Assembly (NCBI RefSeq): GCF_026930045.1
Contig: NC_072740.1
Span: 29,492,384 to 29,556,383, forward strand
DNA from: Uloborus diversus
Taxonomy: Eukaryota
Direction of reading: 5' to 3'
DNA length: 64,000 nucleotides
Shown: piece after piece, positions 9,804 to 60,875 of the stretch
Layout of the letters: every line of letters starts with the position of its first letter
Numbering within the stretch: the stretch's first letter is position 1
Program-made: the position numbers and the translations under genes
The notes under the pieces: model-generated
What the model saw: the letters and a program-made list of their open reading frames with translations, nothing else
Databases searched by the model: none
What the model was told of the DNA's origin: nothing

Positions 9804-10675
9804 GTAAAACCTTCTTATCTCAACGTTACTTCCTAACCTATTCTATTCTGATATTAATGGAATGTTACCGTAATTTTAATTTTGTTTCTCTTTGGGAGTA
9901 GATCATCTAAAATATGTGTTCAAAATTTGCTTACATTCATACTTTATGAAAGTAGGAAATAAAATTACTACACATTTTCCTTGTATTGACTAAGTATCAC
10001 AACTCAAATTGTTGTGTACTTTGATTGCTTTCAGTTAAAAAATTTACAGGTTTTAAGCTTCGTCCATAATAATATCAACATTAATGTTTTTTTTATTATT
10101 CTTATTGAATTTGATGAGCTTTTTGTTCAGTTCGTCGCCAAAAACTATTATGTATTTTATGTAGAATAATTGGACGACAAGGCATTATTTAGAAACACAA
10201 TAACTATTTTATTTACAAGTCAAAACATCTCTTGCCATTCCAGAACACACCACTGTCAAATCGAACCATTTCGAGCTCGAGTTGAGTTGAGTTGCAACAC
10301 AACATTGAAAACAATTATTACGAAAATAAAATACATGGAGCAATAAAATATACACAACATAAATATAAGCCTCTTATTTTTGTAAGAATGGGAATAGGTT
10401 TAGCTTTAATATAAAATGAGTAAAACGTGTATTTTGCTTTTTTTTTAAAAACTTGTTTTACAGTGGGTGGCTAAATTATTCAAGACACTACTCAAATTCT
10501 TGTATTTTCAAGTTTACACTCATTTTTTAAAGAAATAAACCTGAACCACATTTTTCTTAACTCTACATAGCAACTTGTATCATTATTATTGTTTTTCAGA
10601 AGTGGCAACAATACCAGACTGCATCAGTTTACAAACATTTGAGGTTATTTCAGTTTTAGTCTCTGGTGAGAAAAA

Positions 10676-11900
10676 AGACTGCTGTTGCCATGAGATTATA
10701 TAAAGTATTCTAGAATTATTTCTTCGAAAGTTTTTCCGTCTGCTATAGTTAATACATAAGTAACACTTATTAATAAAGCAATGTTGCTACATTTTGAGAT
10801 TAAATTTCAATACTTGATTTATATTAATGTTTGATATTGTCAAAACTTTTTTTTTTAAAGAATGGACAAGGCTTCAGATGCGTCCCCTAGAAAATATAGG
10901 GAAATAAAAGCATTAATACTTCCCTCCCTACATTTCTAGAAAGCTATTGCAAATTTAACAGGTGTTTCTAAGTCAGTAGCTGCATGAATCAAAAGCTTAA
11001 AATTGACCCAAACAAGTCACTGAAAGCAGATCGCGTAGGCAAATGTAACAAAAACATATCACTGCTCCTTGTACGGACTGTAGAATCAGGGATATATGCT
11101 TTTTCGGATATTTAACATTCTCTAAAAGATATTCTTGATAGAATAGCTCCCCCAGGTAGAGTTGCATGCCACCTGGGGGGGGGGGGCACTGTTGAAAGGA
11201 AATTTTTTGACCAAGAAGCTAAAAGTAGATTTGTCGGAGAAGCATGCCTATCGAAATAATAACATTATTTGTTAATAGCACTACTTACAAATAGCTCTTA
11301 CGTGATTCAAACCTCAACAGTCATTTTTTTGGTTGTTTTTCCCACTTTATAAGCTTTTTCTCAGCCTTGGTGTGGCGTGCGTTTTTTTACTCTTCTACCA
11401 ACTGGCTCCGGACAGTCCTGGTGGAAACTTCAATACCCTGTTCATTCATAAGTAAGACAGGCTACACTCCTTTTGCGATTTTTGAGTTAAATATTACTAT
11501 CTGTGGCCGGTACGAGTATTGATGATGTGTTTTCTGTCACGTTTTCCTAAGTGATCCACTTCCAAAGGCATATTTTGGGCAATTTTAATTTTGATATATC
11601 CAACTATTGTCCTAAAAACACCTATTATACTTGAAATAACTCTCTGGCTATGTGTGGAGGGAAGTAGCAATGCTTGTATTTCCCTACACTTTCTAGGAGA
11701 CATGTTTGAAGCCTTGTCCATTCTCAAAAAAAAAAAAAAAAAGTATTGACTATTAATTAACAATATAAATCAAACATTCAAATTTAATAGCAAACTGTAG
11801 TAACATTGCTTTATTAATAAGTGTTAATTACATATTAACTATAGCAGACACCAAAACTTTCGAAGAAATAATTCTAGAACCCAGTAAGCAAAATATCTTT
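10676..11900. repeat. large inverted duplication or foldback-like element: ~300-bp arms (about 10676-10985 and 11585-11900) around a ~600-bp spacer containing a G12 tract
   Basis: 10741 gctatagttaatacataagtaacacttattaataaagcaatgttgctacattttgag…aagaatggacaaggcttcagatgcgtcccctagaaaatatagggaaata… is the reverse complement of 11590-11850 (…tatttccctacactttctaggagacatgtttgaagccttgtccattctc…caaactgtagtaacattgctttattaataagtgttaattacatattaactatagcagac); minus-strand ORF 11497..11763 and plus-strand reading 10861-10950 mirror each other (MDKASNMSPRKCREIQAL… vs MDKASDASPRKYREIKAL…). Confidence 0.75.
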
Positions 11901-12029
11901 CCTCCCTATTGCCTAAAGGTTGACCTGTCAGGAAAAATCATCTTGCCTCAATTCTGCCTCAGTATTTTTATGTTACTCCATTTATGCTGTCAGCAGGCTG
12001 CCACAATATTGACTGACAAGGTGTATGCA

Positions 12030-12310
12030 GCGTAATATCAGGAAAATATCAAGATGACAGCATGAATCCAGTCTCTAGGCAAGATGACCTTGCTTTTGTA
12101 ATCCTGCATACATATTGATATGACAGGAAAATATCAAGATGTTGTCATGACATCATGAATCCAGTCTCTAGGCAAGATGACTTTGCTTTTTTAATCTTAC
12201 ATACATATTTTCATGACAGGAAAATAACAAGCTATCTTGTCATGGCATCACATCACACTTGTCATGACAGTATGAAATCAGCATGTAGGCAAGATGTTTT
12301 ATCTATTTAT
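12030..12310. repeat. ~100-bp tandem repeat (about 3 copies) in an intron
   Basis: Recurring caggaaaatatcaagatg…catgaatccagtctctaggcaagatgac(c/t)ttgctttt…atacatatt units; related short motifs recur in both orientations at 13130-13420. Confidence 0.6.
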
Positions 12311-14155
12311 TTGCTTGTATTATTTTCACTTCAAAATCAAGAATTAAATTTCATTCTTTAATTATTTCTGTTACTCTTTAAGACTAATTAATTTTCTAGC
12401 TAAAGAATATTTTCTTAAAGCTGACATCTGATCAGAAATTCATATAAAGATATTTTATTAATAGTACTCGCAATTTAATTTAAAAAATGAAAATTTCTTC
12501 GTTTTGCGTAATACTTATATTAAAATTCATGCTTCTAATAGTATTTTAAAGACATAAAATGCCTAATTAGGAATAATTGAGGAAGTTTTTATAGCACATT
12601 AAAGAGTAAAGATAGCAATAAATAAATAAATAAAATAAAGTATTTCTGAGTGGATGTCAGCATTGAAAATATCCCCTGTACAAAGCTTATGAATTTCACT
12701 CAAAGAATAACATAAATAATCATTGAATAAAATTAATCTTACTCATGAGATTAAAGTGATAATACGAAATTCTGGGCTGCATGTCCGTTGTTTCAAATTC
12801 TAGGGACAAAAAGCCTTTTTTTCGGCCATTTTTATCATTGATCGCACATTGTCTGCAATATGGCTTGTCTAGTACTATATTAATAAACAAATGCAGTTAT
12901 CAGTCATTCATAAATTATTCGTAAAACAAAAGTATTTCAAACTAATAACTAAGCAACCAACTATATTAGTGAAGCCTGAAAATTGCATCGCCACGTGCAG
13001 CGTGAGGAGAACTGGACCGACTGTATCGAAGGTCGAAGGAGGAAGATAACAAGCCAGCAATAGGTGGGACGCTGGGTATAATGAACTCTGCGCATACGCA
13101 ACTATCAACAAAGGTCAACCTGTTCTATTGTGTACTAATTACCCTGAGGGTGACAACATGAAATCAGCACCACCTTGACGCCAACAGCATGAAATCAATA
13201 CCATCTTGATGGCGTCAGCATAGATGCAATGCTGATAATGTAAGGAATAATCAATATTGATAGTTTAAGATGAATGCAATGTTGCATACATGTTGTTATT
13301 GCAATGTTGCTTTTTAATCTTTATGCAACCTTTATGCAGTATGAAACATGCCAATATTGACACCATCAGTATAATATCATGATCTGTCAAGGTTGATGCA
13401 AGAAATTTTGCTGATAGGGAATACTTAATATAACCTCACAGCAAGAGCAGTTATCTCTCCTTAGATACTATAACTGGAATAACCTCAAATATTTGTACAA
13501 TGACGCAGACTGGTTGTGTTGCTACTTCTAAAAAACAATAATAATGATACCAGCAGCAATTCAGAATTAAAAAAAATTGTGGTTTGTAGTTTATATCTTC
13601 AAAAAGTGAGCCTAAACTTGAAAATTCGTAACTCCAGAGCTTGAATACGCTACCTTACGGTGATTAACAATACTAAAGAAAAAGGTAAAACATTCCATTC
13701 CACGTGTTTTCTTTGGGGTGAACTACAGGCTTCAGACAGTTAGTGGTGTAACGTAATTTCAGAAGAATGGAAAAGAAAGCTTCCCACAAACACGATGTGT
13801 CATTCATGATTACTGTCATTCACTAAGCATCAAAGCAAGTTATAAGTTACAGCATGCGTGTGTTTTACCTTTTTCATCCGCCATTAGACAGTGGCTGCAG
13901 CGCCCCCTTTAGTTTATTGGAGTTGTGAATAAGAGAATTTGAGAAGTGTCCCTAATAATTTGGCCACGCACTGCATTTATTATTATTTTTTGAAGTTAAA
14001 TATAAACAATATATTCAGAATCTTTATTTTCCTTTCTTTTTTTTTTTTTGGTATAAGTTTCCCTCTGATATTGGTTTTGTTAAATATTTTGACTGTTCTA
14101 GAATTAAAACCTTAGAAATACATATTTTTTTACATGCTTTGTATGTTTTTTTTAG

Positions 14156-16757: not shown

Positions 16758-16831
<74 letters not shown>
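16758..16831. repeat. (TA)n microsatellite, about 36 units, exactly between two Tc1-like termini
   Basis: Perfect TA run between …GGGGTTACTG and CAGTGCTGG…. Confidence 0.95.
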
Positions 16832-23165: not shown

Positions 23166-24557
23166 TGGCATGGCAGGCATAGTAAATGCAGTTCTTTTCT
23201 GCCTGAAACAAACTGTTGAATATGTTTGTCAGAGACTGATTTCAGAATTGATGATCAGACACATTTTTCCAGTCAATGAGATTGATGTTAGATTCTGCAT
23301 CAGACTTAACAACAAGAGTTTCAAAAAGTCAGAGTCCATTGTGAGTGGTCAAATGTAGTTGTTAGTATTTTTGTATTTGCAAGATGAAATGTCAAATAGC
23401 AGTGCACTAGCTTGGAAAAATGGTTTTAATTATTTCCTTAGGTGTTTTCGGTCAGGATTTCAAACGATAGTTGCATTTCAAGAGGTAGATTTTTAGCATC
23501 TCTCACTCATTTATGTTGCACGGTAGGCAGGAAGCGTTTGACCAAATTCACACATCTCGGCCAATTCTAACAACTAAAATGGCAGGTGTGAATTTAAACT
23601 AGATGCAAATTGAAAGTTTCATTACTTGTTTCTGTAAGCGATGTAGCATTTATTATTATTGCAATCTTACATAGAACAAATCCTATTTGGGTAAGGAAAT
23701 CCAAATTGCAAACTCAATCCGGAGGCAAAAAGACTGATCAGAATAGAATAAAATTTCACAGAATGCTCTATTTTACACCTTTAAGTATGCTTAATTTTGT
23801 ACTACAAATTGAATTTGTGGAATGTTGATATAAAATTTTTAAATAATTTAATTCCATTTGAAAAATGGATGGGGACATGCCAAAAGTGTGACTTTCTGGT
23901 TAATTTAAAAAATTTTGTGGAAAAACTACATGAGTTGTTGTTTTAATAAGAGTAGAATAACAACAGGTAAGTTATTTCTAACTATTAAAAAATAAAAACA
24001 TTTTCTGAGTTAACAATTTTTGTGTTAGGCTACTGGGACATAATATTGTTAAGACTTTGGAGAATCACCAATATGTCAAAAAACATTTTAACATGAAATG
24101 ATTTTTACTCAATTTTTATTGTAACACAATGATACAACCAAATTGCATGAAAACTGTTACACAAGTTTAATTTTTTAATGGTGATTATGAATCTAATGAA
24201 AAAAAAAAAAAAAGATTGCCATTAGAAATTTGAAAGTTGATTGCATATCTTTATCTCAAGACTATCCCTTAGAAAATTTTTATAATTTAAATTTTATATT
24301 GCATAGTATTTCCGATAGATTGACTAATTTTATGTGTTTTTAGCTGGGGCAAAGCTAACTTGGCAGTGTACATACTGTTGTTATCAGGTTTTTTGTACCT
24401 TTCACAATGTTGATAAGTTGACTCTACCTGAAATATAGTATAGATAGTATTGAAATGAGAAAAAGTATTTAATTTTTTTCTCCATACCACAGGTTAATTG
24501 TTTGTATTTATTCATATTTCTTTTCACATTAATTTTCTAAAGTAAACAGCAAGTTAC

Positions 24558-25349
24558 CTTTTCAAATGTAGTAGGTATTCTTTCAACTGTCTGTAATTTG
24601 TTGTTTTTAAAAGATGCTGTGAAGTTCTTTACTTCATTCATTGTGTAAAACATGTTTCGCGAGAGAGTTAGTAGGTTGGTATTTCTAATATCCAACTTTA
24701 AGTTTGGTGTCTGTAAATTAGTTAAAGCTGATTCATCTATGTGTTTCAAATTTCCACCTTCCAGTACAACAGATTTTACTGATTTAGGAATACTCCCATC
24801 AAGTCCTTGAAACTTTTTGTCTTCAATGTGCAAGTGTATTTCTCTGAGCCCATTATTTTTTTGCAACAACTGACTTACATCAATGTTTTTTAATTTGGAA
24901 TACAAATCCATTTCTATTCTTCTTAAAGCAGTTAAGCGTTGAAAAGCAGCTTTCTGAATGTCCTGCACTTTCAGATTTTTAATTATTAGCTCCTGTAAAC
25001 GTTCCATGTTTCGAAAGCTATTTTCCTGTATTGCTTGAATGGGATTCGATTGCAGATAGAGTGACCTCAAATTATGCAAATGGGACCATACATTGTTATG
25101 TATATTTTGCAGTAAATTGTTTGAAAAATCTAACACTTGCAACTTCTTAAGGTGTTCAAAAGCTTCTGACTGAATGGTTTGAATATTGTTTAAACTTAGA
25201 TTAAGAAATAAAATATTGTTAGGCTCCAAGACTGGTACACTTATCAGGCTTGTGTTTGCAAAGTTCAGAGATTCCAAGCTATTAGGCAGGCTATTTATAA
25301 TCCATTGTGGTACCTCTTCAATTATGTTATGCGAAATGTCCAAAGAAAT
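24558..25349 (-). CDS. chp: chaoptin-like protein, coding exon 2 (264 codons of LRRs)
   Basis: Polypyrimidine tract + CAG acceptor on the minus strand (tctttttactttacag|ATTTCTTTGGAC, AG = complement of 25350-25351) in phase 0 with exon 1; LRR-rich ORF (…SNNLLQNIHNNVWSHLHNLRSLYLQSNPIQAI…LDIRNTNLLTLSRNMF…); the terminal TCCLL* of the ORF is read-through, and the real end is AAG|GTAACT (donor = complement of 24552-24557), which joins in phase 0 to the LRRCT exon. Confidence 0.8.
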
Positions 25350-26385: not shown

Positions 26386-26471
26386 TAAACCTAAACATCA
26401 GTAGTTCAATTTCTGGCTTACTTTTGTGTACATTTGCAAATTATATATTTGAGGAAAATAAGCATACTTAC

Positions 26472-29063
26472 AAGTTTTGGTAGTTTGAATTTCCTTGCTT
26501 CACCAGGTAGAAAGATTCTGTTTTTTGCTATGCTTAAATGTCTTAAATGTTGTAAGCTTTCTATATGACTGAAGTTAAAAGACTTAATTTTATTTCCTGT
26601 CAATTCTAAGGACTGTAATGTTTCTTTAATTTCAAGTAGTGATTCTGTAGGAAATTCAGTTATACTATTATAAGATAGGTCTAACTGTTCTAAAACTGTA
26701 GTTGAAAATAATGTTCTTGGCAAGCTTTCTATTGTGTTGTGAGATGCAAGGAAGATTCTTAATTTATTTTGCTCTTCAAATAAATTACTTGGTAGTTTTT
26801 TAATATAATTTTGAGACAAGTCCAATATTTGAAGACTTCTTAGTCCTCTGAATTCGCTTTCTTCGATGATATCTATTAAATTGTTCCGAAAAACCAAGGT
26901 TTGTAAATGCATCATCTCTGCTACAGCAGAATTCGTGAGATTTGGAATTTGATTATTACTGAAGTCTAGTACATTGATGGAAAGTCTAATTGGGTCAAAA
27001 TAATTATTATCTACATAAGATATATTATTGCTGTTGAAGTTAATGCTTTTAATATTACTTGAAGTGTGACTGGAAGTGTAATATGCAGTTAAATTTTGAA
27101 TTTCATTATGATCAACATCAATTCTCAGTGTTGATAGTCTTCCTACTTGATCAAAAGCCTCTAAGTTGAAGGCAATTAATTTATTATAAGCTACATTTAT
27201 AAACTGAATGTTTGGTAGATTTTGAAATGCTTCATTTTCAATTTCTTCTATGAGGTTTCCTTCTAAGTTAATTGAAATTAATGAATCCAAGTTTAGAAAT
27301 GAAGATTTCTCTATTAATTTTATTAGATTATCATTTAATTGTAAGTGTACTAAATTTTGCAAATCTCTAAATGTGTTCGATTTTAATGAGCTAATTTTAT
27401 TGAAAGCAATTTTTAACTGCAATAAGTTTGGATTATTGATTCCATTAACAAAATTTATTTCTAAATTCTTGAGGTCATTGTGGTCCAAGTTCACAGTTTT
27501 AAGATTCTGAAAAATAGCGAATGATGCTTGGGGCAAATATTGCAAATTATTGTTGCTTATATCTAAGTCTTGTAGTTTTAACAAGTGGCTAAATTTTCTG
27601 TACGGAAAGGTAGACATTTGTAAAGCATTGTGTAGAAATATCTTCTCTAAAGAATGGCCTACATCCTTGAATGTTGTATTTCCAATGTTTGAAATTTTAT
27701 TATAAGATAAATCAAGATGCTTCAGTCCACCAAGTTGTTGAAATGAACCACTCTCAATACTTTCAATCGAGCTTTGAACAATGTACAATTTTTCCATTGA
27801 AGGTCCAATATTTAAAAATTGATGATTTATCTTAGATTTTTGTTTATTAAAAAACAACTCTCTTAGGTTGGGAAGATTTTGCATACTTTCAGAGGAAATG
27901 CCATTCATCTTTGGGCCTCTAATATCTAAATATTTCAGTGTTGTTCCAAAATGTTCGACATCATTAGGTTGAATTGTACCTATTTTATTTCCTGCTAGAG
28001 ATAATTTGACTAGCTTTTTTAAAGCAAGGCTGGGAAACTCAAGTAAATTGTTATAGCTTAAGTCTAAGGTTTGCAATGTATGTGAGACACTATAGAAGGC
28101 ATCATCTGAAATAAATGATATTGAACAATGAGGCATGTATAATTCAGTTATATTTGTTGTCAGAAATGTGTTATTTACTATACTTATTGGATTTCCTTTT
28201 AGTAAAAGACGATTAATATTATTGAAATTCTTAAAACTTTCTGGTAGCAATTCTGTAATAAGGTTGTACTCTAGGTGAATTTCTTCTAAATTGATTTTAT
28301 TCTTTACTTCTTTTCCTTCAGATATTGAAAAAAGTAGATTTTCATTTAGGTTGAGTATTCTCAAATTTCTTAAGTTGGTTAACATGTTAAAAGGTATTTC
28401 ATGAAGCTGATTTCCCATCAGGTTTATGCGTCGTAAGTTGTACAGTTTATTCTGTAATGTGAAATCTTCAATTGAAGTAATAGCATTGTATGCAAGATTC
28501 AGGTCTTCTAGAACTGCCATATTTTTAAAAACATCATTTTGTACATTTGTAATTGAATTTTCAGATAAGTCAAGCACTTTCAATGTGTTGCTGATGCTTT
28601 GAAAATCATCACTTTGAAATGAACTTATGTGATTTGAAGCTAAGTTCAAGTTGTATAGCTTCTCTAATTTTTGTATAGCTTCTTTAGGTACTCGAACTAG
28701 CTCGTTGGTACTGAGATCTAGAATTGATAGTGTTTTTTCAAGTCCTGCTAAAGCATTTGATGGCAGATCACTTAAGAGGTTATTATTAATTTGTAGTTTC
28801 CATAATCCAGTTCCATTCAAACTATTATCTTCTAAAAATCTTAATTTGTTGTTTTTCAAACTCATAATGTAAATAGCAGAATTGTTGATTTGACGGGGAA
28901 CTGTCATAAATGGTATGTTATGGCAACACACTGATCCTAAATCTGGGCCTCCACTTGAACAAGTACATAGTGGATTGAATAAGCAAGGTCTGTGTTGTTC
29001 CTTGTATCTTGATTCGACAATGGCAAGTATAAAAAATAAGCATAATATTTCTTGAAGTCTCAT
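26472..29063 (-). CDS. chp: chaoptin-like LRR cell-adhesion protein, coding exon 1 (ATG at 29063; signal peptide, LRRNT, ~33 LRRs; 864 codons)
   Basis: Continuous 881-aa minus-strand ORF; N-terminus MRLQEILCLFFILAIVES is a signal peptide followed by an LRRNT Cys cluster (CLFNPLCTCS...VCCHNIPF); repeated LxxLxLxxNxI(xxI) units throughout; collinear with Drosophila chaoptin as I recall it (e.g. LEEIHLEYNLITELLPESFKNFNNINRLLLKGNPI vs LDNLHLEYNHIEVLPPNSFKYF...GNPI); the ORF tail after codon CTT (26472-26474) is intron read-through because a canonical GTAAGT donor (minus strand; plus 26466-26471) begins exactly at a codon boundary. Confidence 0.85.
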
Positions 29064-30749: not shown

Positions 30750-31226
30750 AGAGCTAGATAATGTAGACGCACGCGCGCACGCCGATACATCCGATGACGT
30801 GCGGAAACATCGCCGCGGATGAGTTGCATATCGTCCGATAATCGTATAAGTTCATACGTTATAACGTTTAGGTATCGTTTTAAATTGATATTGATATTAT
30901 TTATTTCGATTGTAAAAATTATTTCCAGATAGTTTATACACCCGCGCGTTCGGTGGATGTATTTGCTGTGAGCACCCGCATCTCGCGATAATCGTTCAAA
31001 TTCTTACTTCTAATTGGTTTTAAACTGATATTATTTTATTCATTTGTAAAAGTTATAAATGGATAGTATATGCATAAGCGCCTAAGGTGGATACAGTCGC
31101 TGCTGTGCGGATACATTCGCTGTGGGCACGCGCATGTCGCGATAATCGTTCAAGTTCCTACTCTTCACTTAAAATTTGTTTTCAACTGATATTTAATTAA
31201 TGTGTAAAAATTGTCAATAGATAGTA
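30750..31226. repeat. ~160-bp satellite-like tandem array (left part, about 3 units)
   Basis: Repeated units (…gcg(c)taaggtggatacagtcgctgctgtgcggatacattcgctgtgggcacgcgcatgtcgcgataatcgttcaagttc…aactgatat…gtaaaa(a/g)tt(a/g)t(a/c)aat(a/g)gatagta) at about 30760, 30925 and 31075. Confidence 0.75.
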
Positions 31227-32587
31227 CACTCCTGTTTGTAAAAATTGCAACACCACGAAGGACTTGCGCGAGTGAGCTGAAAATTGCAGGAAATGCAAAG
31301 TAGGGCATGATATGCAAATGACTAGAATTGCAGACCAGTAGCGCAATAGTAATAGACGGCTGTAGCGAGGTGTGTATGATTATCGGTGGTTATATGCAAG
31401 AGTAAACGTTAACTGAATCGTTACTATGCCTCTTCGACGAAAGAAAGCGAAATTTGAGCAAATTTCGGAGTTTGAACTGGCAGAATCGTCGGCCTTCGTG
31501 AAGCTGGACTGTCTTATCGTGCAGTAGCTGCTCGTGTGCAGTGTAAAAGCAGCACAATCATGCGTGTTTGGAAGCAGTGAACGGACGAGGGTCGGACAGC
31601 TTGGAAATCCGGGAGTGGACCCCGAAATGTGACGTCAGTTCGCGATGACAGACACCTGGTGCGTATGGCGCTGACGGACCGCACAGCTTTTTTCTAGGCA
31701 ATTGGCAGCACAGTGGTCAACAGCTACAGGTGTTTCATTGTGTGCTTTATCAATTAGGAGACGTCTGCTGCAGCTTGGACTGCGCGCAAGGATTCCTTTA
31801 TACAAGATTCCTCTCACTCAAAATCATCGCCGCTTGCGGCTACAATGGGCCAATGTGCATAGGAGCTGACGTGCTGATTGGCAGCAGGTCGTCTTTTCTG
31901 ACGAATCCCGTTTCAATTTGTGGCACTATGATAGCCGAATTCGTGTCAGGCTACCGGTGAACGGCACATTATCGAACGCCACAGTGGACGAACACCCGGA
32001 GTAATGGTCTGGGGTGCCTAGCATATCATGGACGATCACAATTGCTACGAATTGTGAGCAATTTGAACAGCACCCGATACATAAACGAAGTTTAACAGCC
32101 TCAAGCTATTTCCTTTCCTGCAAGGATTGCCAGGGGCTGTATTCCAGCAGGATAATGCCCGTCCACATGTCGCCAGGACTGTCAAATCCTACCTTGATTT
32201 GCAGCAGGTACAGCTTCTTCCTTGGCCTGCATATTTCCTGGATATGTCACCGATTGAACATGTGTGCGATTTCGTTGGGCGGCGTCCCGCTCGTGATCCT
32301 CGTCCTGTTGCTTCGACAGACGAACTTTGGTTGCGCATACAAACAATATAGAATACTCTTCCGCAGGCAGATATTCGAACTTTGTTTCACTTCATGCCGA
32401 GTCGTGTAGCAGCTGTTATTGCGGCGCGTGGTGGCCACACAAAATACTAATTTCTATCTCTTTTTATCGTTTGTTTGGTTTGAAAATGTAATCATTTATT
32501 TGTACCATTACCACTCAACTGTGCATTAAACTTCATTGAACTATGATGCTTCCTTCATGGTGTTGCAATTTTCACAAACAGGACTGT
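31227..32587 (+). mobile_element. Tc1-family transposon (1361 bp) inserted at TA inside a satellite unit; transposase pseudogene
   Basis: TIRs CACTCCTGTTTGTAAAAATTGCAACACC (31227-) and GGTGTTGCAATTTTCACAAACAGGACTGTG (-32587), each with a flanking TA; internal frames match the widespread arthropod Tc1-like transposase (SRQLAAQWSTATGV, SIRRRLLQLGLRARIPLYKIPLTQNHRRLRLQWA, FQQDNARPHVARTV, LPWPAYFLDMSPIEHVCDFVGRRPARDPRPVASTDELWLRIQTIWNTLPQADI) but with several stops and frameshifts. Confidence 0.85.
31427..32447 (+). pseudogene. Tc1-like transposase pseudogene
   Basis: Starts MPLRRKKAKFEQISEFE…; ends …AARGGHTKY*; reading requires at least 3 frame changes; in-frame stops after LDCLIVQ and DPEM. 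Confidence 0.8.
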
Positions 32588-32880
32588 GTATACGCAAGCG
32601 CGTAAGGTGTATATATTTGCTGCTGTGCGGATACATTCGTTGCGAGCACGCGCATCTCGCAACAATCATTTAAGTTCTCCTTCTTTACTTCTAATTTGTT
32701 CAAAATTAATGTTGCTAAGGTAAAACGTAGTAATCATAGCTAGATAATATAGAAGGACGCAGACACGCAGATACATTCGCTGCTGTAAGAAAATATTTGG
32801 TGCTGTGCGGATACATTCATTGCGGACATGCGCATCTCGCCATAATCGCGAGTAATGTTCTAGTTTCCCACCTGTCCTTT
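32588..32880. repeat. ~160-bp satellite-like tandem array (right part, about 2 units)
   Basis: tatacgcaagcgcgtaaggtg…gctgctgtgcggatacattcgttgcgagcacgcgcatctcgcaacaatcatttaagttc… and a second unit from about 32740; the first unit is completed across the Tc1 insertion when joined to 31226. Confidence 0.75.
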
Positions 32881-46000: not shown

Positions 46001-47540
46001 CATTTTCCCACAAGATTTTGAAAACATATATTACTGTAGAGATTTATAATATTTTACTTGTATATCCTGCTTATAGACCTAAATTCAGTGAGCCTCAGTT
46101 GTGTTGATTAAACCACATTTATTTTAAATAACCAAATTTAAAAAAAAAATGTTTTCTAAATTTAAATTTGAAAGCAACATAAACCTGTGATAACTTCAAT
46201 ATTTTAGGTTAATAGAATAAGTGTAACATTTAGCTTCGATTTGATATAAAAGTTTAGATTTACTTATGTATCTCTCATAAGTTATAACATTGGAAAAAAA
46301 GACCGCTGAGTATATATAATAATATCCGTGCATATAAATAATTAGTAAATGAAAACTTTTATCGCAATCGTTGAGAGACTACTAAAACTAAGAGTTGGAA
46401 TTACATTTCTATATACAGTCGAGTCCCGACTTACGCGAGGGATGCGTTCCAAGACCCCTCGCGTAAGTTGAAATTTCGCGTTGTAGAACAAGGTTAGTTT
46501 AGGAATTTTTGAAAAGCATACCCAATTGCTTCAGACATTTGTAAACACCCCTCAAATTGTTTCAAACCATTTTTTAACTATATATTACAGTATCTTTTAA
46601 AAAGAACTGACGTTTTTCTGTATTTTAGAAAGAAAAAAAAAACATTATTTAACATAAAATACTGTTGAGGAGCACAGAATCAATTATCACTGCGGGAAAG
46701 AAACATAAAATAAAGCAGTATGTTTCTTACAGTATGTGCACTACAGCGTTATAATAGCACTGAAGAGTAGATATAGTAATATATTAATAATTTAAACGAG
46801 CTGATGTGTGCCTCACATGACTTCCTTTTACTCCATTTTAATGTCATTTTCCCATTATTGGCAATTTTAATGTGATTCAATAGTTTAATCTCTAAATATT
46901 AAAAACGATGGCCAAATTAAAACCAGATAAAAAAAATCGCCAAATTTTCCGCCAAGTTGGCGACAAAACTTGGCGACCAAAAGACTGGCGATATATCGCC
47001 AAGTGTCCGTCAAATTGTAACACCACTTAAGTTTGCATTGATATTAACAATGATTTCCCCCCAAAAAGGTGCAAAAGACCCCCTTAGGAACATCCGAAAG
47101 CAACCAAAAGGGGAGGTGCACAACTAGACCCCACTACGAGTCTATGTACCAAATTTCAACTTTCTAGGACATACCATTTTTGAGTTATGCGAGATACATA
47201 CGCACATACGCACATACGCACATACATACAGACGTCACGAGAAAAGTCGTTGTAATTACCTCGGTGATGGTCAAAATGGATATTTCGGGTGTCTATACAT
47301 TCTTAGGCACTTTTCCGCATGTGGTCGAATCGAAAAAAAAACTCAACATTCATTTGGGGGTGAGCAAAATGGAAATTAAGGGCGATTTTTGAGTGAAAAT
47401 TTTTTCGCGAATACAATACTTCCTTTTTTGTAAAAGGAAGTAAAAATGAAGAAGGTTTATGAGCTCGATCAGTCGCGTGACAGCGAATGCACATTAGGCA
47501 ACTCGTCATAGTCTCAGATAACACTAGGCTTGACCTATAC

Positions 47541-48290
47541 CCTCATCGAGTTTCCAAAAATTGTTACCGTAGATGAAGAGCATAAGTTGTAAATGAAACG
47601 CGAACGTAAGAATTTCTACCTCTTTCACGTGAATTAATCAGAGTTACCAGGGGTTGAAAGGTGTCCCAAAATGAAACATTTACCGTCATTGAGTTTCCAA
47701 AAATTGTTATCATAAATAAACAGTAAAAGTTGTAAACGAAACGCTTAAGTAAGGTTGCCTACCTATTGCGTGTGAATTAACACTCCGTCGGGCGCAATAT
47801 GTTGTAGAACACGATCGGGCGCATTGAGCCTGGGAATCACACTTTAATCTACTGATTTTTTCTACGCATGTTTACATTTTCTTACGAAAAAATTGTCAAC
47901 TACAAACACCAAAGAAGAGGAATAAAACAGTTTTTCATGATTTTCGAATGTAACATAAGTTTAAGAAAATGAATATACATTTTTCCATGAGCTATTGAGG
48001 GGGCGTGGCTAACTAAAGAATTCGAGGTGTGCCTAATAGATCAGTTGCGCCCGACGGAGTGTTAATCAGGATTGCCAGGGGCTAAAAGGTGCCCAAAAAG
48101 GAGTAAGTTACCCTCATCGAGTTTCCAAAAGTTGTTGTCATAAATAAAGAGTAAAATCTATAAAGAAAACGTTCAAGTTAAGTTTGCCAACCTTCTTCCG
48201 GTCCCTAATCAGGGTTGTCAGAGGTTTAAAAGGGCTCAGAAATTAATAATTTTCCCTCATCGAGTTTCCACATATAAAAAAATGTAGGCA
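47541..48290. repeat. internal ~150-bp tandem array (4 units) inside the 46416-48521 element
   Basis: Units begin ccctcatcgagtttccaaaaattgtt… at 47541, about 47690 (ccgtcattgag…), 48110 and 48252; each contains …gaattaatcag(a/g)(g/a)tt(a/g)ccagggg(t/c)t(g/a)aaaggtg(t/c)ccaaaa. Confidence 0.75.
47781..48060. mobile_element. 280-bp MITE with 17-bp perfect TIRs (CACTCCGTCGGGCGCAA / TTGCGCCCGACGGAGTG) and a TTAA target-site duplication, nested in the tandem array
   Basis: Flanks gaaTTAA|cactccgtcgggcgcaa … ttgcgcccgacggagtg|TTAAtcaggattgccagggg; the uninterrupted neighbouring unit reads gaaTTAAtcagagttaccagggg, so TTAA is duplicated exactly (a piggyBac-type target). Confidence 0.85.
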
Positions 48291-52829: not shown

Positions 52830-52975
52830 CACGAGTGTGTGTGTGTGTGTATGTAGGCATGTGTGTGTGTGGGTAGTTGTGTGTTTGTGTGTGTGGGGGG
52901 AGTATGTGTATGTGTGGGTAGTTGTGTGTATGTGTAGGTGTCTGTATGTATGCGTGTGTGTATGGAGACGGTTTT
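52830..52975. repeat. GT-rich imperfect minisatellite ((GTGT/GTAT/GGGT)n)
   Basis: gtgtgtgtgtgtgtatgtaggcatgtgtgtgtgtgggtagttgtgtgtttgtgtgtgtgg…; ORFs 52816..53016 (+) and 52829..53071 (-) are artefacts of it. Confidence 0.9.
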
Positions 52976-55139
52976 CGCTAGAGGAGCAGCATCGTGAGGC
53001 GGCCAGCCGACCGTGATGCTGCAGAGGGAGGCGGGGGGGAACATAAAATCATAGGAATTCAAAACTATCAAGTGAGAACAATAAGCAATCGTGATTGCTC
53101 AAAAAAAGGCTAAAATGCGATTTTTTACGGTAGTTTTGGAGTTTCCTCAAGGACCGTCTCTTTTTTTAATCACCGTAATTTATAGTAAAATCTGTACTGG
53201 AGCTTTTCATTTAACTAAAGAAAAAGCGAGTGTTTGGCGTATTGTAGCTATGTTATTGCTACGTAATTTAAAATTGTTATTTATGTAACGATAAAAATAT
53301 TTTTTCAGAAAATTTGATCCGGACGAACGAGGTGCCGGATCAACGAGATTCTACTGTAATTTCAAAAACAGAATACGTTTCATGTATCCTTGATGAACAT
53401 AATTTCTAAAAAAGTTCCCCTCCCAAATCCATCGTCTGGATTCCCACTGTTTAAATTTAATGATTTAACAGGGAAATCGCATGAAATTGACTGTTTTTTA
53501 CCCATAACTTTTCTTCGAAAGTTTTCCTGTAGAGCGTTGCGTTTTTAAAAGTTTCAATCTCCAAAAATGGACGAGGGAAGGCTCCCTGAACCTTTTTCCC
53601 TTAACATTACCAAAGATAATCTAAAATTCATTTTTAAAAACTAAAATTTCAAAAAATTCTCAAGGGAGAAACCCCCGAACCCCCATTCTTGAGTGAATAT
53701 TATGCTTACAATTAGGTTCATATTTCTAATTATCAGTTTAGTTTTGACTCACTGACTCCATTTAAAAAATCCCCCTTTGAAAAATACAGATGCCACCAAT
53801 GTCCTACACTCAGTTAATTATGTCTCCTCGCCACCCTGTACCCCTTGGGGGTTATGTAAACCCCCAAGCTCCCTGGTATAGTGGTACCCCTATTACTGAA
53901 GCTCTGCGCACGCCTCTGATGCTTAGATATCTATTTTTTGAATCAAATGTTATTCCTCTATTAACCGTCGTTAATTTTTAAGTGCTTTCAGTGGTGGATC
54001 CAACGAGGAGGCTAAGGGGGCTATAGCTTTCTCCCCCCCCCCTTTGATTTAGTGCAATGCCATAGAGTAAAATTGGATAAGTGTAACTTACCTAAAAAGA
54101 CGCACGTCAGCTACATTTTATTTTCTTATATTGACATCAAATTTCTATTTTCGTAGATAAAAATGATAGTTAGACAGTAATATTAATGTCTTGTACGATT
54201 TGAAATTTGTCAAGATTTAAGTTCTCGTTCAAAATTTTTAAAACCTAAAACTTGCCGTAAATGTTATACATCATATCTTACACTGATGCAGGTAGAGAGA
54301 GCACGTATTTAAGTTTTGTTGCTTTAGACAGAGTATTCCTTAGAAGGCATCAAAACTTTAATTTAGAGGGATACAATCGTCGTGAGAGGTGGGAATGGGT
54401 CCACTGACTACATTACAGTCATTATTTTAAGGTATGTAAAACATTAAAAACGGAAGTAGGTGGACGTGAAGTTATTGAACGAACTATTTAAAAACCGTCA
54501 ATTAAACTGCGCTATAGAGAAAAAGTATGCGTGTGCATTTTGTTCACTATCCGTGTTAGATTTTGTTTTTTAATTATTTGTAGGCCGTGAAATTTTTTGA
54601 AAAATAAATGTCTTGTTTGTACTTACAACTGTATACAAACTTCCAATAATTTTCGATTGTTTACAATAGCAGTTATCGAACTTAGCTTTTTAATTGGAAT
54701 GCAGCTTTTTTTCAACTTATTTCACGATGAAGAAAAAACTTCATATTGTGGAGTAATATTCCATCATGCCTTTAAATAGTAATCTCTGTGTGTCAAAAGT
54801 TGCATCATACCCGCTAACAGATTTATAATTATTGCAAGTCGGCGAAGATGCTTCATCAGGTGTATTATTACTCGAGCATTAAGGTAATATAAAATTTCAA
54901 ATGAAGATATTTGTTTAGATAAAAAACGTAGCAATTTTTTGAAGTTTGAAACAGTTTAAATTTAAATTAACATTTATTCGCATTTTTTCCAAACTTAAAA
55001 CTCCAACCCTCCCAAACTGTATGAATTCCGGCGAGTTATATTTCCGTGTGGTTTTGCAGTTAAAAAAGGTGCACAACCTTTAATTTTAGCACACATTGGC
55101 AATCCTAGTATGGTAGTTTATGTGTATGTAAGAAACGTC

Positions 55140-57115
55140 ATGACCATCCCCTCTCCCCCTTGAAAAACAAATTCCCAGATACGCTACTACGCACGAATAT
55201 GATTATTTTGTAGCTTATTTGAGAAATTAGTATTTTTTACCCCTGTTCTTTGTGAGACTTCAGCGATTAAACTTAGTTGAACCGAATTATGTAAAGATCC
55301 GACGTAAATCATGGAATAGTATAAAGAATATATGCATATTGGTTTATAGGACCATCCAACATATAATTGTTGAAGCTTAAACATGGATAATGAATGAATT
55401 ATTGATACCGAAATAATTTTGGTATTTTCTGGGTTGTTCATATGGAGAATACTGACCCATATTTTCGCTTTACCATTATTTCTATGGAAATACCAAAGCA
55501 AGTAGAACCGTCGGAAACCGCAATGATTCCTGCTTTGCAGGATGCTATTCAAAAAACGCGTAACAGCAGCATTTCTTTTCCGTTCGGCTTTCTTGCCAAC
55601 ATGTTTTACGCTTGTCGCTAATCGATTTTACAGCCACTGTTAAGTATACTTTTTGTGTTGATTGCATTTAAAATATCTCCTGGTGGTAATATGTTGCTGA
55701 GCATTTTCATTTGCTTTGAACCAAGGTTCACAAACTTAACGATTGCAGTTAATCTTTGAAGAAACTTCATTTAGGGCATTTTTTACAGGCTTTTCATTCA
55801 GACCAAACTCATAACAATATGAAAATTCGTTATGTCGAAAACAGCCTTTTTATGATTAAAAATGTAAACTTTAATCTCTTAGGATCTTTTTTAGATTCCA
55901 AAAACCAGCCTATATGAAGTCTTGAGCAATAATTTACCTCTGTGCCAAATTTGGAAGAAATCCGACTAAAACTGTGGATTTGTATAAGGAACATACACCC
56001 CCCACACACAAACATACATCCATTTTTATATTTATAGATACATGTAAAGAAAGCCTTGACTACATCCCTCCCCTTTGAAAGAAAAATTCCGAATGCGCTA
56101 TTGTGCATTACTATGATTATTTTGCAATTTATTTGCTTTATTAGTACTTTTACCCCTTTTCTTGGACAGCCTGAAGCGACTTCTATTAAACCGAATTAGG
56201 TTATCGGTTATAGTTGAACCGAATTACTTAAAGATTCTACGTAAATCAAGGAATAGTATAAAGAAAATTTACATATTGCAAATTGGTTTCATAAGGTGAT
56301 AAGGATCTTAGAACATTAGGTTAAATTTTTGCTGCAAGGATGAAATAGATGTAGTTTTAATAAAAGTAGTTTAATACTGAAACAGTCGAAGATAGTACGT
56401 CAATATTGAATGCAATATTATTACCTTACTCATGTTCGTATTTTCTCTGCTATTAACGGGAAAAACACTGATCAAAAATTACACGCAACCCTTACTGTTG
56501 TGGATTTTATAATTAAACAATATTTAAAACTTATGATTTAACGGTAGCATTCAAATCAAGTAGCAACATGAGCAGCATCAATGAACCCCTGGAGCTTCGT
56601 AGGTCGCAGTTTAAGTAACGATGTACAGCAGCATTTTTTATACCTACGGCTTTCTCGCCAAACATGCTTTAACGCTCATCGCTAAACGGCATTGACGGCC
56701 AGCGTTCAGAATACGTTTTGTGTTGATTGCATTTAAAATAGCTCCTGGTGGTAATATGTTGATAACCGTTTTTATTTGCTTTGAACCAAGGTTCACAAAT
56801 TTCACGATTAAAGTTAATCTTTGAAGAAACTTTATCTAGGGCAGTTTTTTACGGGCTTTTCATTTAGACTAAATTCATAACTATACAAAAATTTGTTCGT
56901 GCAGAAAAGAGAGTTTTATGACTCAAAATATGAAATTAGACCTCTTTGGGTCTTTTTAAAATTCCAAAACCCCGCCTATACGAATTCCTGAGCAACAATT
57001 TACCTTTGTGAAAAATTTGGAAGAAATCCGACGAAAAATGTGGATTTGTATAAGGAACATACACACATACCCACACACCCACAAACATACATCCATTTTT
57101 ATATATATAGATTAA
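55140..57115. repeat. tandem duplication, 2 x ~0.95 kb at about 85% identity (55140-56085 and 56085-57115), ending where the Penelope-like RT begins
   Basis: Paired blocks: 55150 cccctctcccccttgaaaaacaaattcccagatacgctactacgcacgaatatgattattttgtagcttatttg / 56075 cctcccctttgaaagaaaaattccgaatgcgctattgtgcattactatgattattttgcaatttatttg; 55650 gattgcatttaaaatatctcctggtggtaatatgttg…gctttgaaccaaggttcacaaac / 56715 same; both end …tggatttgtataaggaacatacac…catccatttttatat. Confidence 0.8.
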
Positions 57116-57129
57116 AAATTCTGTTGAGT

Positions 57130-58330
57130 TTGTTAAAAAAAAAATTCATAGTTTCGTTCCAAATAATTCTTTTAAGGTTTCTTTTGATATTAACTCTTTA
57201 TTTACGAACGTTCCCGTCGAGGGTTCATTGTTATGCGTTCGTAAAAGACCATCTGAATTTCATTTCACCAATACGGAAATTGAGGATTTAGTTTTCCTTA
57301 CCCGTACCTGTCTTAAGCAAGGTTCTTTTGTTTTTAATGGGAAATTTTATATTATGTTAGATGGTCTGGCTATGGGAAACCCACTCAGCCCCATTCTTAG
57401 TGATATTTACATGCATTATTTTGAGGTTAAGCTGTTCCAAAAACTGCAGTTTCAATTTTATGTTCGGTATGTTGATGATTGTTTTGTTCTAATGAACCAG
57501 AATCAGTTTGAGAGTGATGAGGTTTTATCTATTTTAAAATCCATTGATCCTCATATTCAATTTTCTTGTGAGAAAGAACGGAATAATTGAATTTCGTTTC
57601 TTGATGTACTTGTTTCTCGTACTGAAATTGGTTTTGAAACTACTGTTTATCGCAAACCTTTTGCTGTTTCTTTACCTCCTCATAAGACTATCGTCTCATC
57701 CTCCAAATCAAAAATATTCTGCTTTCAATTCTTTTGTTTATCGCGCAATCAATATTTGTCCTTCATCGGAACTTCTTCAAGGGGAACTTAATTATCAAAA
57801 AGCTGTGGCAATTGATAGAGACTATCCGCCAACTTTGATTGATTTCATTTATAAAAAAAATTCAAATAAATCCCAAACTAATGTTCTTAACCGAACATTC
57901 ATCAGAAAGAATTTGGTTGTTTTGCCATTCTTTCCATCTATAAGCTATCAGGTTGCTAAGATTCTAAAACGTTTCCAATTCCAGGTGGTGTTCTCTGCTA
58001 TTAATAAATTTTCATTCTCTTCTCTTAAAGATCATATTCACCCTCTTAATTGTTGCGGAATTTATGGAATTAATTGTAGTTGTAAACTTGCGTATATTGA
58101 TTAGACTCGGCGTGCTTTAAAAATTCGTTGAAAGAGCATCAAAATTATGTGAAAAAACAACAATTAAGTAAGTCTAGTATTGCTCAACATTATTGAGATT
58201 CGAATCACTCTTTTGATCTTAACTCTTATCAGATTATCCAAAAATGCCCCAATTCATCAGATCTTGACTTTTGGGAATCTTTTCATATTTTAAGGAACAG
58301 TTTTAACTTAGTTAATGATCTTAAAGCAGT
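57130..58330 (+). mobile_element. Penelope-like retroelement (PLE) fragment: reverse transcriptase + GIY-YIG endonuclease, 5'-truncated and pseudogenised
   Basis: RT motifs are read from the plus strand: SFDINSLFTNVPVE (motif A region), FYIMLDGLAMGNPLSPILSDIYMHYFE (motif B'), YVRYVDDCFVL (motif C, YVDD); downstream CGIYGINCSCKLAYID*TRRALKIRLKEHQNYVKKQQLSKSSIAQH is the GIY-…-YIG endonuclease signature with the YIG codon corrupted to a stop; further stops at 57590 and 58104. Confidence 0.75.
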
Positions 58331-59639
58331 TCCATATTTTTCCAACATTTGGCTCCCATATCTTTAATACTGTCCTTTCCCTGTCCATTTTTTTCTATTT
58401 TGCATATTTTTTTCCCATTCATTTTTATCTATCTTGCTTTGTTTTTAACCTTTTTTGTCTTAGTTGACATCCCCCTCCCTTTTTCTTCTATTTATCTTTA
58501 TTTTTTTTCCTTTTTCCGAATATTTTTGTTTCTGTTTATTTTATTTCCTGTTTTTTTTTTCTTCTTCTTCCATTCAGCTTTTCCTTTCTTGCGGTTCACG
58601 GTTATTGAGATTTTCTTTTTGTTTAAGCTTTGGCTTAATATTTGTCCAATTGAATTCTTTCTTCCTGGGTTTACTGTACCTCAGAGAAAGCTCTTAGCCT
58701 TTGCTTCTTTTCCTATTGGTTCCTTATCGGTTTATAATTTTCTCATTGGGTGTTTGGCTAATCCGCTATTTTTATCTTTTAAGCTGCATGCTTATCTGCT
58801 CTTGGCTTTAGTCGGATGTCTTTTCATCCATAAGCTCATTACTTTTTGCATTGAAAAAGGCGTTCCCTGTGATGCCGAAACACGTGTCTGCTGTTATTGG
58901 ATATTTGTGCTTTTTTGACGTTGTTTTTTTCTTACTTTACTGTTCAGCACAAAGGTATTTATTTATCAGATTACAATGTGATTTACAATACCATGGGAAG
59001 GCTTGGAGGAAATAGCTTCGTCCTGATGCTATCAAGGTTTTTTAATCTGAAGTTATCACTTTCAAATTCACACAGTTATATATTTTACTTCTTTCTGAGG
59101 CTAACGGGGCTATAGCCCTCCCCCCTCCCAATGAGATCAGAACTTGCTCTGGATAAAACCGCATTTTCGGAGTTTTTAAATACTACAAAGAGGGCTTAAA
59201 ACTGTTTTTAGACCTCTAATTTTGGAATTTAAAAAAAAAAAAAAAAAATCGTATTTAAAATCCTAAATTTTATGGGAGACCGACCCCCCCCCCCCACCGA
59301 GATTGAGAGTATCAGCAAAAATGACAATAAAGACCCTCTAAAACAGTGACTCCCCACTTGGAGTTGGACCGAGGTTAGCCCCCCCCCCCTGCTCAAGTTC
59401 TAGATCCGCCACTGAGTTTTTTTTATATAAATTGAGATGCAATACATGACTTCAATCTTTTGTTCATGTTCAAGTTTTGTTTTCATTCTTCAAAATTTTA
59501 GAATTGGTGTGACTTTTATTAAGGTAATTGGCACCGCATGAGCGAAATCTCGGTTCTTCGGGGGAACGGGATGTACACCAGCTCCCGCCGCTGGCGGGTT
59601 GCATGAGCCGCCGTAGGTGACGAGATCAAGGAGGCCACT

Positions 59640-60140
59640 AACGGTGGCTAGTAAATAAATTAAATAATAAACGAGAAATGAAAATGAGTGTATGAATAAA
59701 TAAATTCATAATCATAATGAACGAGTAACTTTTAATTTAATGAAGGAATAAACAAATGAGTGAATGAATGAGCTTAGGATTGAAGGATTGAATAAAAAAT
59801 GAGTAGGTTAAGGAATGATTGAAATGAATAAATATGAAAAAAATAAATGCATAAGTGAATGAATGAGCAACGATAGGAATAAGTAGATGAGTGAAATATG
59901 CAATAAATGAATAAATAAATGAACATATGAATAAGCAAATGCGTGAGTGAATAAGTAAGTGCATAAATGAATCAGTAAACGATATGAAGTACTAAATAAC
60001 TAAAAGAAATAGTGAGTGAACACATTATTGAATCAGAATTAGTGAATGAATGAATGAGTGTATGAGTGAATAAATAAATGAATATGAGGGAAAATGTTAT
60101 AAATGAATAAATAAATAAATAAATAAGTGAATGCCTGAGC
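59640..60140. repeat. simple/low-complexity (TGAATGA / ATAAATGA)n tract
   Basis: …gaatgaatgagc…aaataaataaatgaat…; the reverse-complement version (TCATTCA)n occurs at 50490-50630; ORFs 59737..60181 are artefacts. Confidence 0.9.
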
Positions 60141-60875
60141 AAGTATGTGAATACATAAAATATGTATGTCGGTTTCACCAATTTTAAATATTATAGTTGC
60201 ATCGTAAATTATTTGAATCTACAATCGCTTTCGAAATGTTGAAGAATTTCATTACTTGCTCCGATTTCTTATTTTTAACTCGTAGCTAAATCCGCAAACC
60301 CAGGGCCCTACTTGGCTTTAATTAGGCTAGTGTGTAGTTAGTATAAAACTAGTAAGAGTGATCTAAATCATCCTAGACAGAGCCTGATTAAAGTATAGGA
60401 AGGTTCTAAGCAAAGATTTTTTGGGACCATTATGTAGTCAAATTTTACACTTTTAGTTATTAGCAAAAACAACTTGAGCCACTTGGGGTCCCCTAAAAAA
60501 GCAAGGGCTCTAGACTACAGCCTAGTTGGCCTATTCAGTAATCAGGCCCTGATCCTGGCAAAACGTATAAGGAAACAGATTGAAATAGTTACAAGGAAAT
60601 CAAAGAACTGTAAAATCATTTTTTGCTACACATTTTTTCCCCGCTTCATTTGGGGACCCTTCGTAGCTCGGGGGCCGATCACCGACTAGCCGACCTGACC
60701 AGTCCAGTCCTGGGTCTTATGTTGTTAGGATTTTCATCTGCCCCTTTTTGCTCAAACTGTTTTTTGAATAACTTAAGCAATTCGATATAAAGGGTTAGCA
60801 GTATTCTTTCTTCTTCTGATGATCTTGTCAGAATGTGATCTTAACCTCAATTGTTTGTGAACCCTGTATTATCTA

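Follow-up and report, generated by a model that had tools for sequence, protein, structure and literature searches.

Does a tandem repeat that directly abuts a retroelement belong to that element, or is it only the DNA into which the element was inserted? We addressed this question at a locus of the spider Uloborus diversus, in a 64,000-nucleotide stretch of contig NC_072740.1 (hereafter, the window; AT-rich, with a G+C content of about 33%), where a pair of tandem units ends at the start of a decayed Penelope-like element (PLE). The original prediction had proposed that the pair might be the pseudo-long terminal repeat (pLTR) or the 5′ portion of the same insertion. Our analysis instead favors, with a probability of about 70%, a solitary, dead, 5′-truncated PLE that entered an already present tandem duplication at its TA-rich end, the units being flanking DNA rather than a pLTR, a 5′ part of the element, or a retrozyme.

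We established the identity, boundaries, and lesions of the element from its coding remnant and its tail. The coding remnant comprises the following features.

57113–58367, plus strand: PLE open reading frame (ORF) remnant (tblastn, translations, homolog search)
57114–57689, 57691–58128, and 58131–58367, plus strand: reading-frame pieces of this remnant (translation)
57180–57659, plus strand: reverse transcriptase (RT) core (Pfam RVT_1, motif reading, alignment to homologs P0001–P0008)
57180–57215, plus strand: RT motif A, SFDINSLFTNVP (direct reading)
57357–57392, plus strand: RT motif B, LDGLAMGNPLSP (direct reading)
57459–57479, plus strand: RT motif C, YVRYVDD (direct reading of YVDD)
57597–57614, plus strand: FLDVLV (direct reading)
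57648–57659, plus strand: YRKP (direct reading)
58057–58196, plus strand: GIY-YIG endonuclease core with internal CCHH (direct reading, homologs), made up of GIY (58057–58065), C-x-C (58075–58083), YIG with G changed to D (58093–58101), Q changed to TAG (58102–58104), and then KEH and AQH

The remnant is 54–78% identical to spider proteins that combine RT and GIY-YIG domains, and tblastn with nine such proteins traces PLE homology across three frames to a 3′ limit at 58352–58415. In a three-frame translation of 57115–58330, frame 3 reads NSVEFV...SFDINSLFTNVP...LDGLAMGNPLSP...YVRYVDD...FLDVLV...YRKP; frame 1 then reads SSHPPNQK...CGIYGINCSCKLAYID-stop-TRRALKIR, with CGIYGINCSCKLAYID and its stop at 58054–58104; and the reading returns to frame 3 with KEHQNYVKK...SIAQHY-stop-DSNH...LVNDLKAVPYFSNIWLPYL-stop. 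The stitched 406-residue translation matches Pfam RVT_1 at 31.5 bits (cut-off 29.6). A protein search with it returned 136 proteins, and the top match has E = 1e-148, with identity at 59% and query coverage at 98%. The closest named homologs come from spiders, namely Uloborus diversus itself (P0008, whose RT part is 78% identical by blastp and 77% by tblastn) and Parasteatoda tepidariorum, and the remoter ones are proteins of 600–700 residues from beetles, rotifers, flatworms, and echinoderms. All of the closest homologs scanned are RT and/or GIY-YIG proteins; scanned singly, they contain RVT_1, with GIY-YIG above the Pfam cut-off in P0006 and P0048 and just under it in P0001. Pfam reports no GIY-YIG match for the decayed window copy itself, and its matches to PDB profiles, telomerase RT among them, are weak.

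The GIY-YIG region is collinear with the RT, lies C-terminal to it, and is 50–56% identical to its homologs. It also retains the CCHH motif of the endonuclease, as a C-x-C between GIY and YIG together with two His residues (GIYGIN-C-S-C-KLAYID...KEH...AQH). Canonical endonuclease-positive (EN+) PLEs are defined by a single ORF in which RT is followed by a C-terminal GIY-YIG endonuclease, and CCHH inside GIY-YIG is a criterion for them (PMC8557442). Within PLEs, a CX2-5CxxC finger in the linker that joins RT to endonuclease is present in Neptune and Nematis, and the internal CCHH is lost in Hydra (PMC8557442). We found no CX2-5CxxC linker motif in the window copy or in P0001–P0006, nor a conserved cysteine pair upstream of GIY. 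Judged from sequence, the single ORF carrying RT and GIY-YIG, the RVT_1 match, the CCHH, and the homologs identify the element as a PLE and neither a long interspersed nuclear element nor a long terminal repeat (LTR) element, in agreement with the original prediction. Because RT shares one ORF with a C-terminal GIY-YIG, CCHH is kept, and the linker finger is missing, domain architecture alone would assign the element to the Penelope/Poseidon type. The locus adds one decayed copy to a known kind, a spider family of Penelope/Poseidon type.

The copy is truncated at its 5′ end. All tblastn queries that reach so far begin at 57111, which corresponds to residue 244 in P0013, a protein whose N-terminus is complete, and to residue 189 in P0018, and about 245 N-terminal residues are lacking. 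No homology to the PLE N-terminus or to RT motifs 1–2 was detected anywhere in the 64 kb by tblastn with full-length relatives; motifs 1–2 are missing because the copy is 5′-truncated. The ORF had been described as starting abruptly at motif A, where the second repeat copy ends. The abutment is real, with the end of unit 2 at 57112 falling within 1–2 nt of the start of PLE homology, but the start lies about 18 codons upstream of motif A. The lesions within the remnant, and its native end, are these.

57588–57590, plus strand: TGA stop, in-frame nonsense
About 57690, plus strand: +1 frameshift (translation)
58099–58101, plus strand: substitution of G to D in YIG
58102–58104, plus strand: TAG stop replacing the Q of YIGQ
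About 58129, plus strand: −1 frameshift (translation)
58194–58196, plus strand: TGA stop replacing a conserved W
58365–58367, plus strand: native stop TAA, the end of the ORF

The substitution and the TAG stop, read directly, bear out the earlier description of YIG turned into YID and a stop in a dead copy. Both of the stops reported earlier, at 57590 and 58104, are present, but that list was incomplete, lacking the TGA at 58194–58196 and the two frameshifts. An earlier string, ...ALKIRLKEH, presented as one reading, crosses the second (−1) frameshift unmarked, and the ORF runs 37 nt beyond its earlier end at 58330. The estimated decay since a functional ancestor, based on three nonsense mutations in 413 codons, is d ~0.05 (95% interval, 0.01–0.16).

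Spider Naiad PLEs encode selenocysteine, and their endonuclease is N-terminal. Selenocysteine was considered for the TGA at 57588 and rejected: among the homologs, only the closest, P0008, has C at the aligned position, the others having R, S, or K; two frameshifts and a TAG stop are also present in the copy; and its endonuclease is not N-terminal like that of Naiads. This TGA is an ordinary nonsense mutation.

The element as a whole does not end at 58330 either, since its 3′ untranslated region (UTR) carries on for about 600 nt, to about 58957–58975. The result is a dead, 5′-truncated, solitary PLE copy of about 1.85 kb (57113 to about 58970). We compared its tail with related loci on a Parasteatoda contig (L001) and on metagenome contigs of spider origin (L002–L004, of which L003 is the same locus as L004).

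58368–58975, plus strand: PLE 3′ UTR and tail (blastn to tails of related PLE copies)
58848–58891, plus strand: putative PLE-type minimal hammerhead motif (tail comparison, descriptor, minimum free energy (MFE) fold)
58848–58850 (GCA) with 58889–58891 (UGC), plus strand: helix I
58851–58857, plus strand: core UUGAAAA (U3-A8 variant), followed by the unpaired base A58858
58859–58864 with 58871–58876, plus strand: helix II, 6 bp, followed by GAAA (58877–58880)
58881–58886, plus strand: C-ACGU-G, with palindromic loop, followed by U58887 and C58888; predicted cleavage after 58888

The 3′ UTR is T-rich at 58380–58580 and has a conserved terminal block at about 58845–58969. By blastn, the window tail matches L001 at 11183–11231 and, in inverted orientation, L001 at 9782–9860 and L002 at 1686–1747; window positions 58875–58965 match the sequence just 3′ of the PLE ORFs in L001 and L002 and also inverted copies just upstream. 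The 3′ end of the element is placed within 58957–58975, as L002 and the window share ...CAGCACAAAGGTATTTATTTA and other copies stop a few bases earlier. The hammerhead motifs of the window and its relatives, those of L003/L004 being one locus and an inverted copy, align as follows.

Window: GCA UUGAAAA A GGCGUU-loop-GAUGCC GAAA C ACGU G UC / UGC
L001: GCA CUGAUGA A GGUUGC-loop-GCAUCC GAAA C AGCU G UC / UGC
L003/L004: GCA CUGAAGA U GAUUCC-loop-GGUAUC GAAA C AGCU G UC / UGC

A structural descriptor, composed after the sequences had been seen, was run over 233 kb on both strands and matched nothing but window positions 58851–58888 and two PLE tails, those of L001 and L003/L004; 20 shuffles gave 0 matches. 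The MFE fold contains the 6-bp helix II in 3/3 sequences, with pairs that vary by compensatory changes. Common to the three sequences are a base left unpaired after A9, a G10.1-C11.1 pair, and a helix III whose loop is palindromic (AGCU in the relatives versus ACGU in the window). In the hammerheads of metazoan PLEs, a base 5′ of helix II is unpaired, G10.1-C11.1 is present, helix II is long, and helix III is tiny and palindromic; the U3-A8 core covariation has been reported for Cercyon PLEs (PMC4209133). The motif at 58848–58891 matches this published PLE type and is a putative hammerhead. Its U3-A8 state was probably inherited rather than produced by two random mutations, because the remaining core is intact; it is either a subfamily or a copy-specific state, as the two relatives whose motif is intact, L001 and L003/L004, keep C3-G8. 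The spider PLE family appears to carry the typical PLE minimal hammerhead motif, here as its U3-A8 variant, and annotation of the locus should extend the PLE call by about 600 nt in the 3′ direction to take in the hammerhead-bearing tail.

The units upstream of the element are unequal in length.

55126–56039, 914 nt, unstranded: tandem unit copy 1, ending ...CATCCATTTTTATATTTATAGAT (blastn and MAFFT versus copy 2)
56042–57112, 1071 nt, unstranded: tandem unit copy 2, ending ...CATCCATTTTTATATATATAGAT (blastn and MAFFT versus copy 1)

Blastn of one copy against the other gives E = 5e-137 for the 3′ part and 9e-27 for the 5′ part, far above chance. The pair is real, as originally proposed, but its description as a duplication of 2 × 0.95 kb does not hold, given the two lengths and unit centers, of 220 and 345 nt, that cannot be aligned between copies. 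The 3′ parts agree at 83% of 489 columns and the 5′ parts at 71% of 242. The units have the same terminal sequence and are separated by a 2-nt spacer. Their pairwise divergence of 17–29% amounts to about 0.085–0.15 per lineage, and the tandem pair is old and uneven. There is no third unit in the 64 kb, where the best extra nhmmer matches have E = 0.03–1.3 and are strongly composition-biased.

As far as can be told, the units are noncoding. In a six-frame reading, all frames are broken or differ mostly by amino acid changes; a minus-strand ORF is kept by both units, and in our own reading of its two translations the differences are again mostly amino acid changes. Pfam gives no match on the units, and no protein homologs of the minus-strand translation of either unit were found among 5.8 billion proteins. 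With the six-frame reading, Pfam, and protein search all empty, we rejected the possibility that the units are decayed coding sequence. They have no tRNA-like head of the kind found in short interspersed nuclear elements (SINE-like), and neither terminal inverted repeats nor a poly(A) tail were seen on direct reading. Exact-pattern scans for the unit in two public collections (genome and viral contigs, with almost no spider DNA) returned nothing.

The term pLTR denotes a partial copy of an element placed in front of a full or partial copy, and it consists of the element's own UTR or terminal sequence, usually with a hammerhead (PMC8557442, PMC4209133, PMC11167929). Because a pLTR is made of the element's own sequence, the units should resemble the tail of the PLE. 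Neither blastn nor nhmmer detects any similarity between the units and 57113–58975 or between the units and 46 related PLE loci. Across 55126–57112, neither strand contains a CUGANGA...GAAA core or the family tail box, Rfam reports no hammerhead in the units at E ≤ 10, and tblastn finds in them no remnant of the missing 245 N-terminal residues. The window also holds no second copy of any PLE segment, such as a pLTR would be. The units have no detectable relation to PLE sequence. The lack of similarity to the tail and to the 46 loci, of a hammerhead, and of an N-terminal remnant argues against the original reading of the tandem pair as a pLTR or 5′ portion, which is not supported; homology of the 55140–57115 region, as then delimited, to PLE 5′ regions or pLTRs was likewise not found by blastn, nhmmer, or tblastn. 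pLTRs are frequent in PLE insertions and not universal, solitary 5′-truncated copies being common (PMC8557442), and a repeat that abuts a PLE deserves the pLTR label only if it matches the element's own sequence.

Three related spider loci do have an inverted partner and illustrate how an upstream repeat that does derive from a PLE appears. L001 and L003/L004 both have a 5′-truncated direct copy abutted by an inverted copy of the tail, to which L003/L004 adds the endonuclease C-terminus, and the composites are bordered in L001 and L004 by target-site duplications (TSDs) of 11–12 bp, ATGTGCTACGT and CGATCAGGTTAT, respectively. In L002, the start of a full-length ORF is preceded, at a distance of about 220 nt, by an inverted fragment of the tail. 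Nothing similar to these inverted PLE-tail copies was found upstream of the window PLE. The composites span 9782–9875 + 11158–11248 in L001 and 3700–4579 + 4582–6530 in L004, with about 17–19 nt of extra sequence between inverted tail and TSD, and the direct copy of L004 has its 3′ end inside the hammerhead, just before GAAAC.

How, then, did a PLE come to begin exactly where unit 2 ends? The 64-kb window has only five (TA)4+ loci, and one of them is in the terminal sequence CATCCATTTTTATATATATAGAT, 3 nt from the junction. Purified PLE protein cleaves AT-rich DNA with a preference for ATT (PMC11167929), and (TA)n targeting has been reported for Naiad PLEs (PMC8557442). The simplest explanation would begin with a duplication of noncoding DNA that was already in place and bounded by TA-rich sequence, which we take as flanking target DNA. 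The GIY-YIG nuclease of the PLE would have nicked this AT-rich target at the T5(AT)n end of unit 2. Target-primed reverse transcription would then have copied the RNA from its 3′ region, through the hammerhead tail, the endonuclease, and most of the RT, and halted about 18 codons upstream of motif A, leaving out the N-terminal domain and RT motifs 1–2; the inserted copy would subsequently have decayed neutrally. The pre-insertion allele, with two units and no PLE, would read ...TTTTTATATATATAGATTACAATGTG... We infer this order of events, and target preference as the cause of the coinciding boundaries, and the proposed mechanism is modeled on known PLE behavior. Two observations, both marginal, agree with this account. 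One is a candidate TSD, described below; the other is the flank that follows the PLE, which resembles the junction between units 1 and 2 and could be an ambiguous start of a third unit (6.5% of random pairs are as good).

Several observations weigh against insertion of a solitary PLE into a pre-existing duplication. The candidate TSD (TATATATAGATTA at 57102–57114 versus TATTTATCAGATTA at 58962–58975) is marginal, comprising 13–14 nt with one mismatch and one indel at an element whose 3′ end is placed only within about 18 nt, and 3.2% of random pairs equal it; part of it may be the element's own tail, as L002 shares GGTATTTATTTA. The TSDs of two relatives are not AT-rich, so the PLE family shows no strict (TA)n targeting. 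Without target preference as the reason, two unrelated events would hardly be expected to place the end of unit 2 and the truncation point within 1–2 nt of each other. The point estimate for the PLE (d ~0.05) lies below that for the duplication (about 0.085–0.15 per lineage), which speaks for a later insertion, but the age estimates overlap, and the order of events is not proven. At 64–69% identity in coding DNA, the related loci are too distant for a similarity search to reveal a 5′ UTR or pLTR that evolves fast. For the tail, the hammerhead descriptor was composed post hoc, and Rfam reports no hammerhead or other credible RNA, either in the whole window at gathering score or in 54500–59500 and L001 at E ≤ 10.

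The units might instead belong to a dispersed repeat family that has nothing to do with the PLE (a non-autonomous transposon, or a short satellite with monomers of about 1 kb), with the PLE adjoining or having entered its edge; they would then be no one-off local duplication. Their uneven divergence, with identities of 83% (3′) and 71% (5′) and non-homologous centers of 220 versus 345 nt, suits two family members with conserved ends better than a single segmental duplication, and both stop at an identical sequence with a 2-nt spacer between them. Against this, the 64 kb contains no third copy, the extra nhmmer matches (E = 0.036 to 1.3) being of high bias; terminal inverted repeats, a poly(A) tail, a tRNA-like head, and protein remnants were all not found, and the exact-pattern scans of two public collections, though nearly without spider DNA, were empty. 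We regard this explanation as possible but doubtful. It is highly improbable that the units are transposons inserted into a longer PLE, producing an apparent 5′ truncation: such insertions would account for the sharp junction at 57112/57113, but the displaced 5′ part is then expected upstream of 55126, and tblastn finds none in the window.

A link between the units and the PLE insertion event itself would involve template-switched passenger RNAs or a PLE-dependent, tandem-forming non-autonomous element, and is the original proposal taken at its broadest. Unit 2 abuts the PLE exactly, as unit 1 abuts unit 2, which is the geometry expected if reverse transcription jumped from one template to the next at RNA 3′ ends; PLEs are known for complex insertions, both tandem and inverted (PMC8557442), and tandem hammerhead-bearing retrozymes have been proposed as PLE derivatives (bioRxiv 10.64898/2026.07.22.740005). 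Yet the units share nothing with the PLE tail, the ORF, or any related locus and have no hammerhead core, and with a divergence of 17–29% and a non-homologous center they could stem from one template or one event only if that event were very old or the templates different. No second example is known, and we consider such a link quite unlikely. Slightly less likely still is its particular form in which the locus is a chimera of unit, unit, and 5′-truncated PLE, in which the PLE machinery took along or copied the hammerhead-less units, perhaps through repeated switching of template onto other RNAs during target-primed reverse transcription; if this were true, the locus would record how PLE tandems form. 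For the reading that we prefer, a solitary truncated PLE at the end of an older duplication, the exact abutment of duplication and truncation is the sole unexplained detail, and it would be interesting only if it recurred genome-wide. Otherwise, the locus matters little beyond annotation and is a case of ordinary repeat annotation in a spider genome.

Among known systems, the element is most readily compared with Penelope/Poseidon PLEs (Penelope of Drosophila virilis and Poseidon PAc of Anolis carolinensis), with which it shares a single ORF containing RT and then a C-terminal GIY-YIG, without the CX2-5CxxC finger, as well as a 5′-truncated copy, a hammerhead motif in the terminal UTR, and a junction in AT-rich DNA. 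It differs in that the window copy is solitary, without a pLTR or a tandem or inverted partner, and in its spider lineage, the closest proteins being unnamed Uloborus/Parasteatoda predictions. The putative hammerhead resembles that of the Cercyon PLEs of Schistosoma mansoni (PMC4209133), a minimal type-I hammerhead in the terminal repeat region, in the replacement of C3-G8 by U3-A8, a variant first described for Cercyon, and in having a base unpaired 5′ of helix II, G10.1-C11.1, a helix II that is long, and a helix III that is tiny and palindromic. The two differ in host phylum and in sequence, and the hammerhead described here is known from sequence alone. Non-LTR retrozymes, non-autonomous repeats for which an origin from PLE pLTRs has been proposed and which form tandem head-to-tail units near PLEs, are the only known class that ties a PLE-adjacent tandem to the same system. 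In contrast, the units at this locus measure about 0.9–1.1 kb, contain no hammerhead core on either strand, and are unlike the PLE tail, whereas a retrozyme would have a hammerhead in each tandem monomer, and 55126–57112 has none.

The window is repeat-rich. Downstream of the PLE, a short element-like stretch at 59097–59420 has G- and C-runs and an A18 run (59231–59248), ends like CAGTGGCGGATC, and shares a 35-nt motif (GAGGCTAA.GGGGCTATAGC...CCCCCC) with 54008–54042, within 53990–54045. These two stretches may be fragments of a small repeat resembling miniature inverted-repeat transposable elements (MITE-like) on either side; a relation to the PLE was not detected. Low-complexity sequence is present both downstream, as a degenerate (AATG/AATA)-rich array at 59740–60160, and upstream, as a (GT)n microsatellite at 52834–52962.

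Farther away, a long (TA)n microsatellite (16758–16831) is accompanied by flanking inverted repeats at 16820–16860/18305–18345 (41 nt, 98%) and 18349–18493/19442–19586 (145 nt, 84%), and these may be the ends of a DNA transposon or a foldback element. Other direct or inverted repeat pairs, with 70–87% identity and unrelated to the PLE or the unit, lie at 10504–13625, 30955–32848, 36886–37103/62229–62445, and 47538–48270. Finally, a gene for chaoptin, a leucine-rich-repeat protein, points to a spider host; it lies on the minus strand, with two long open exons (24537–25343 + 26418–29063) whose best matches are spider chaoptins at 62–66% identity (66% for Stegodyphus dumicola and 64% for Nephila pilipes).

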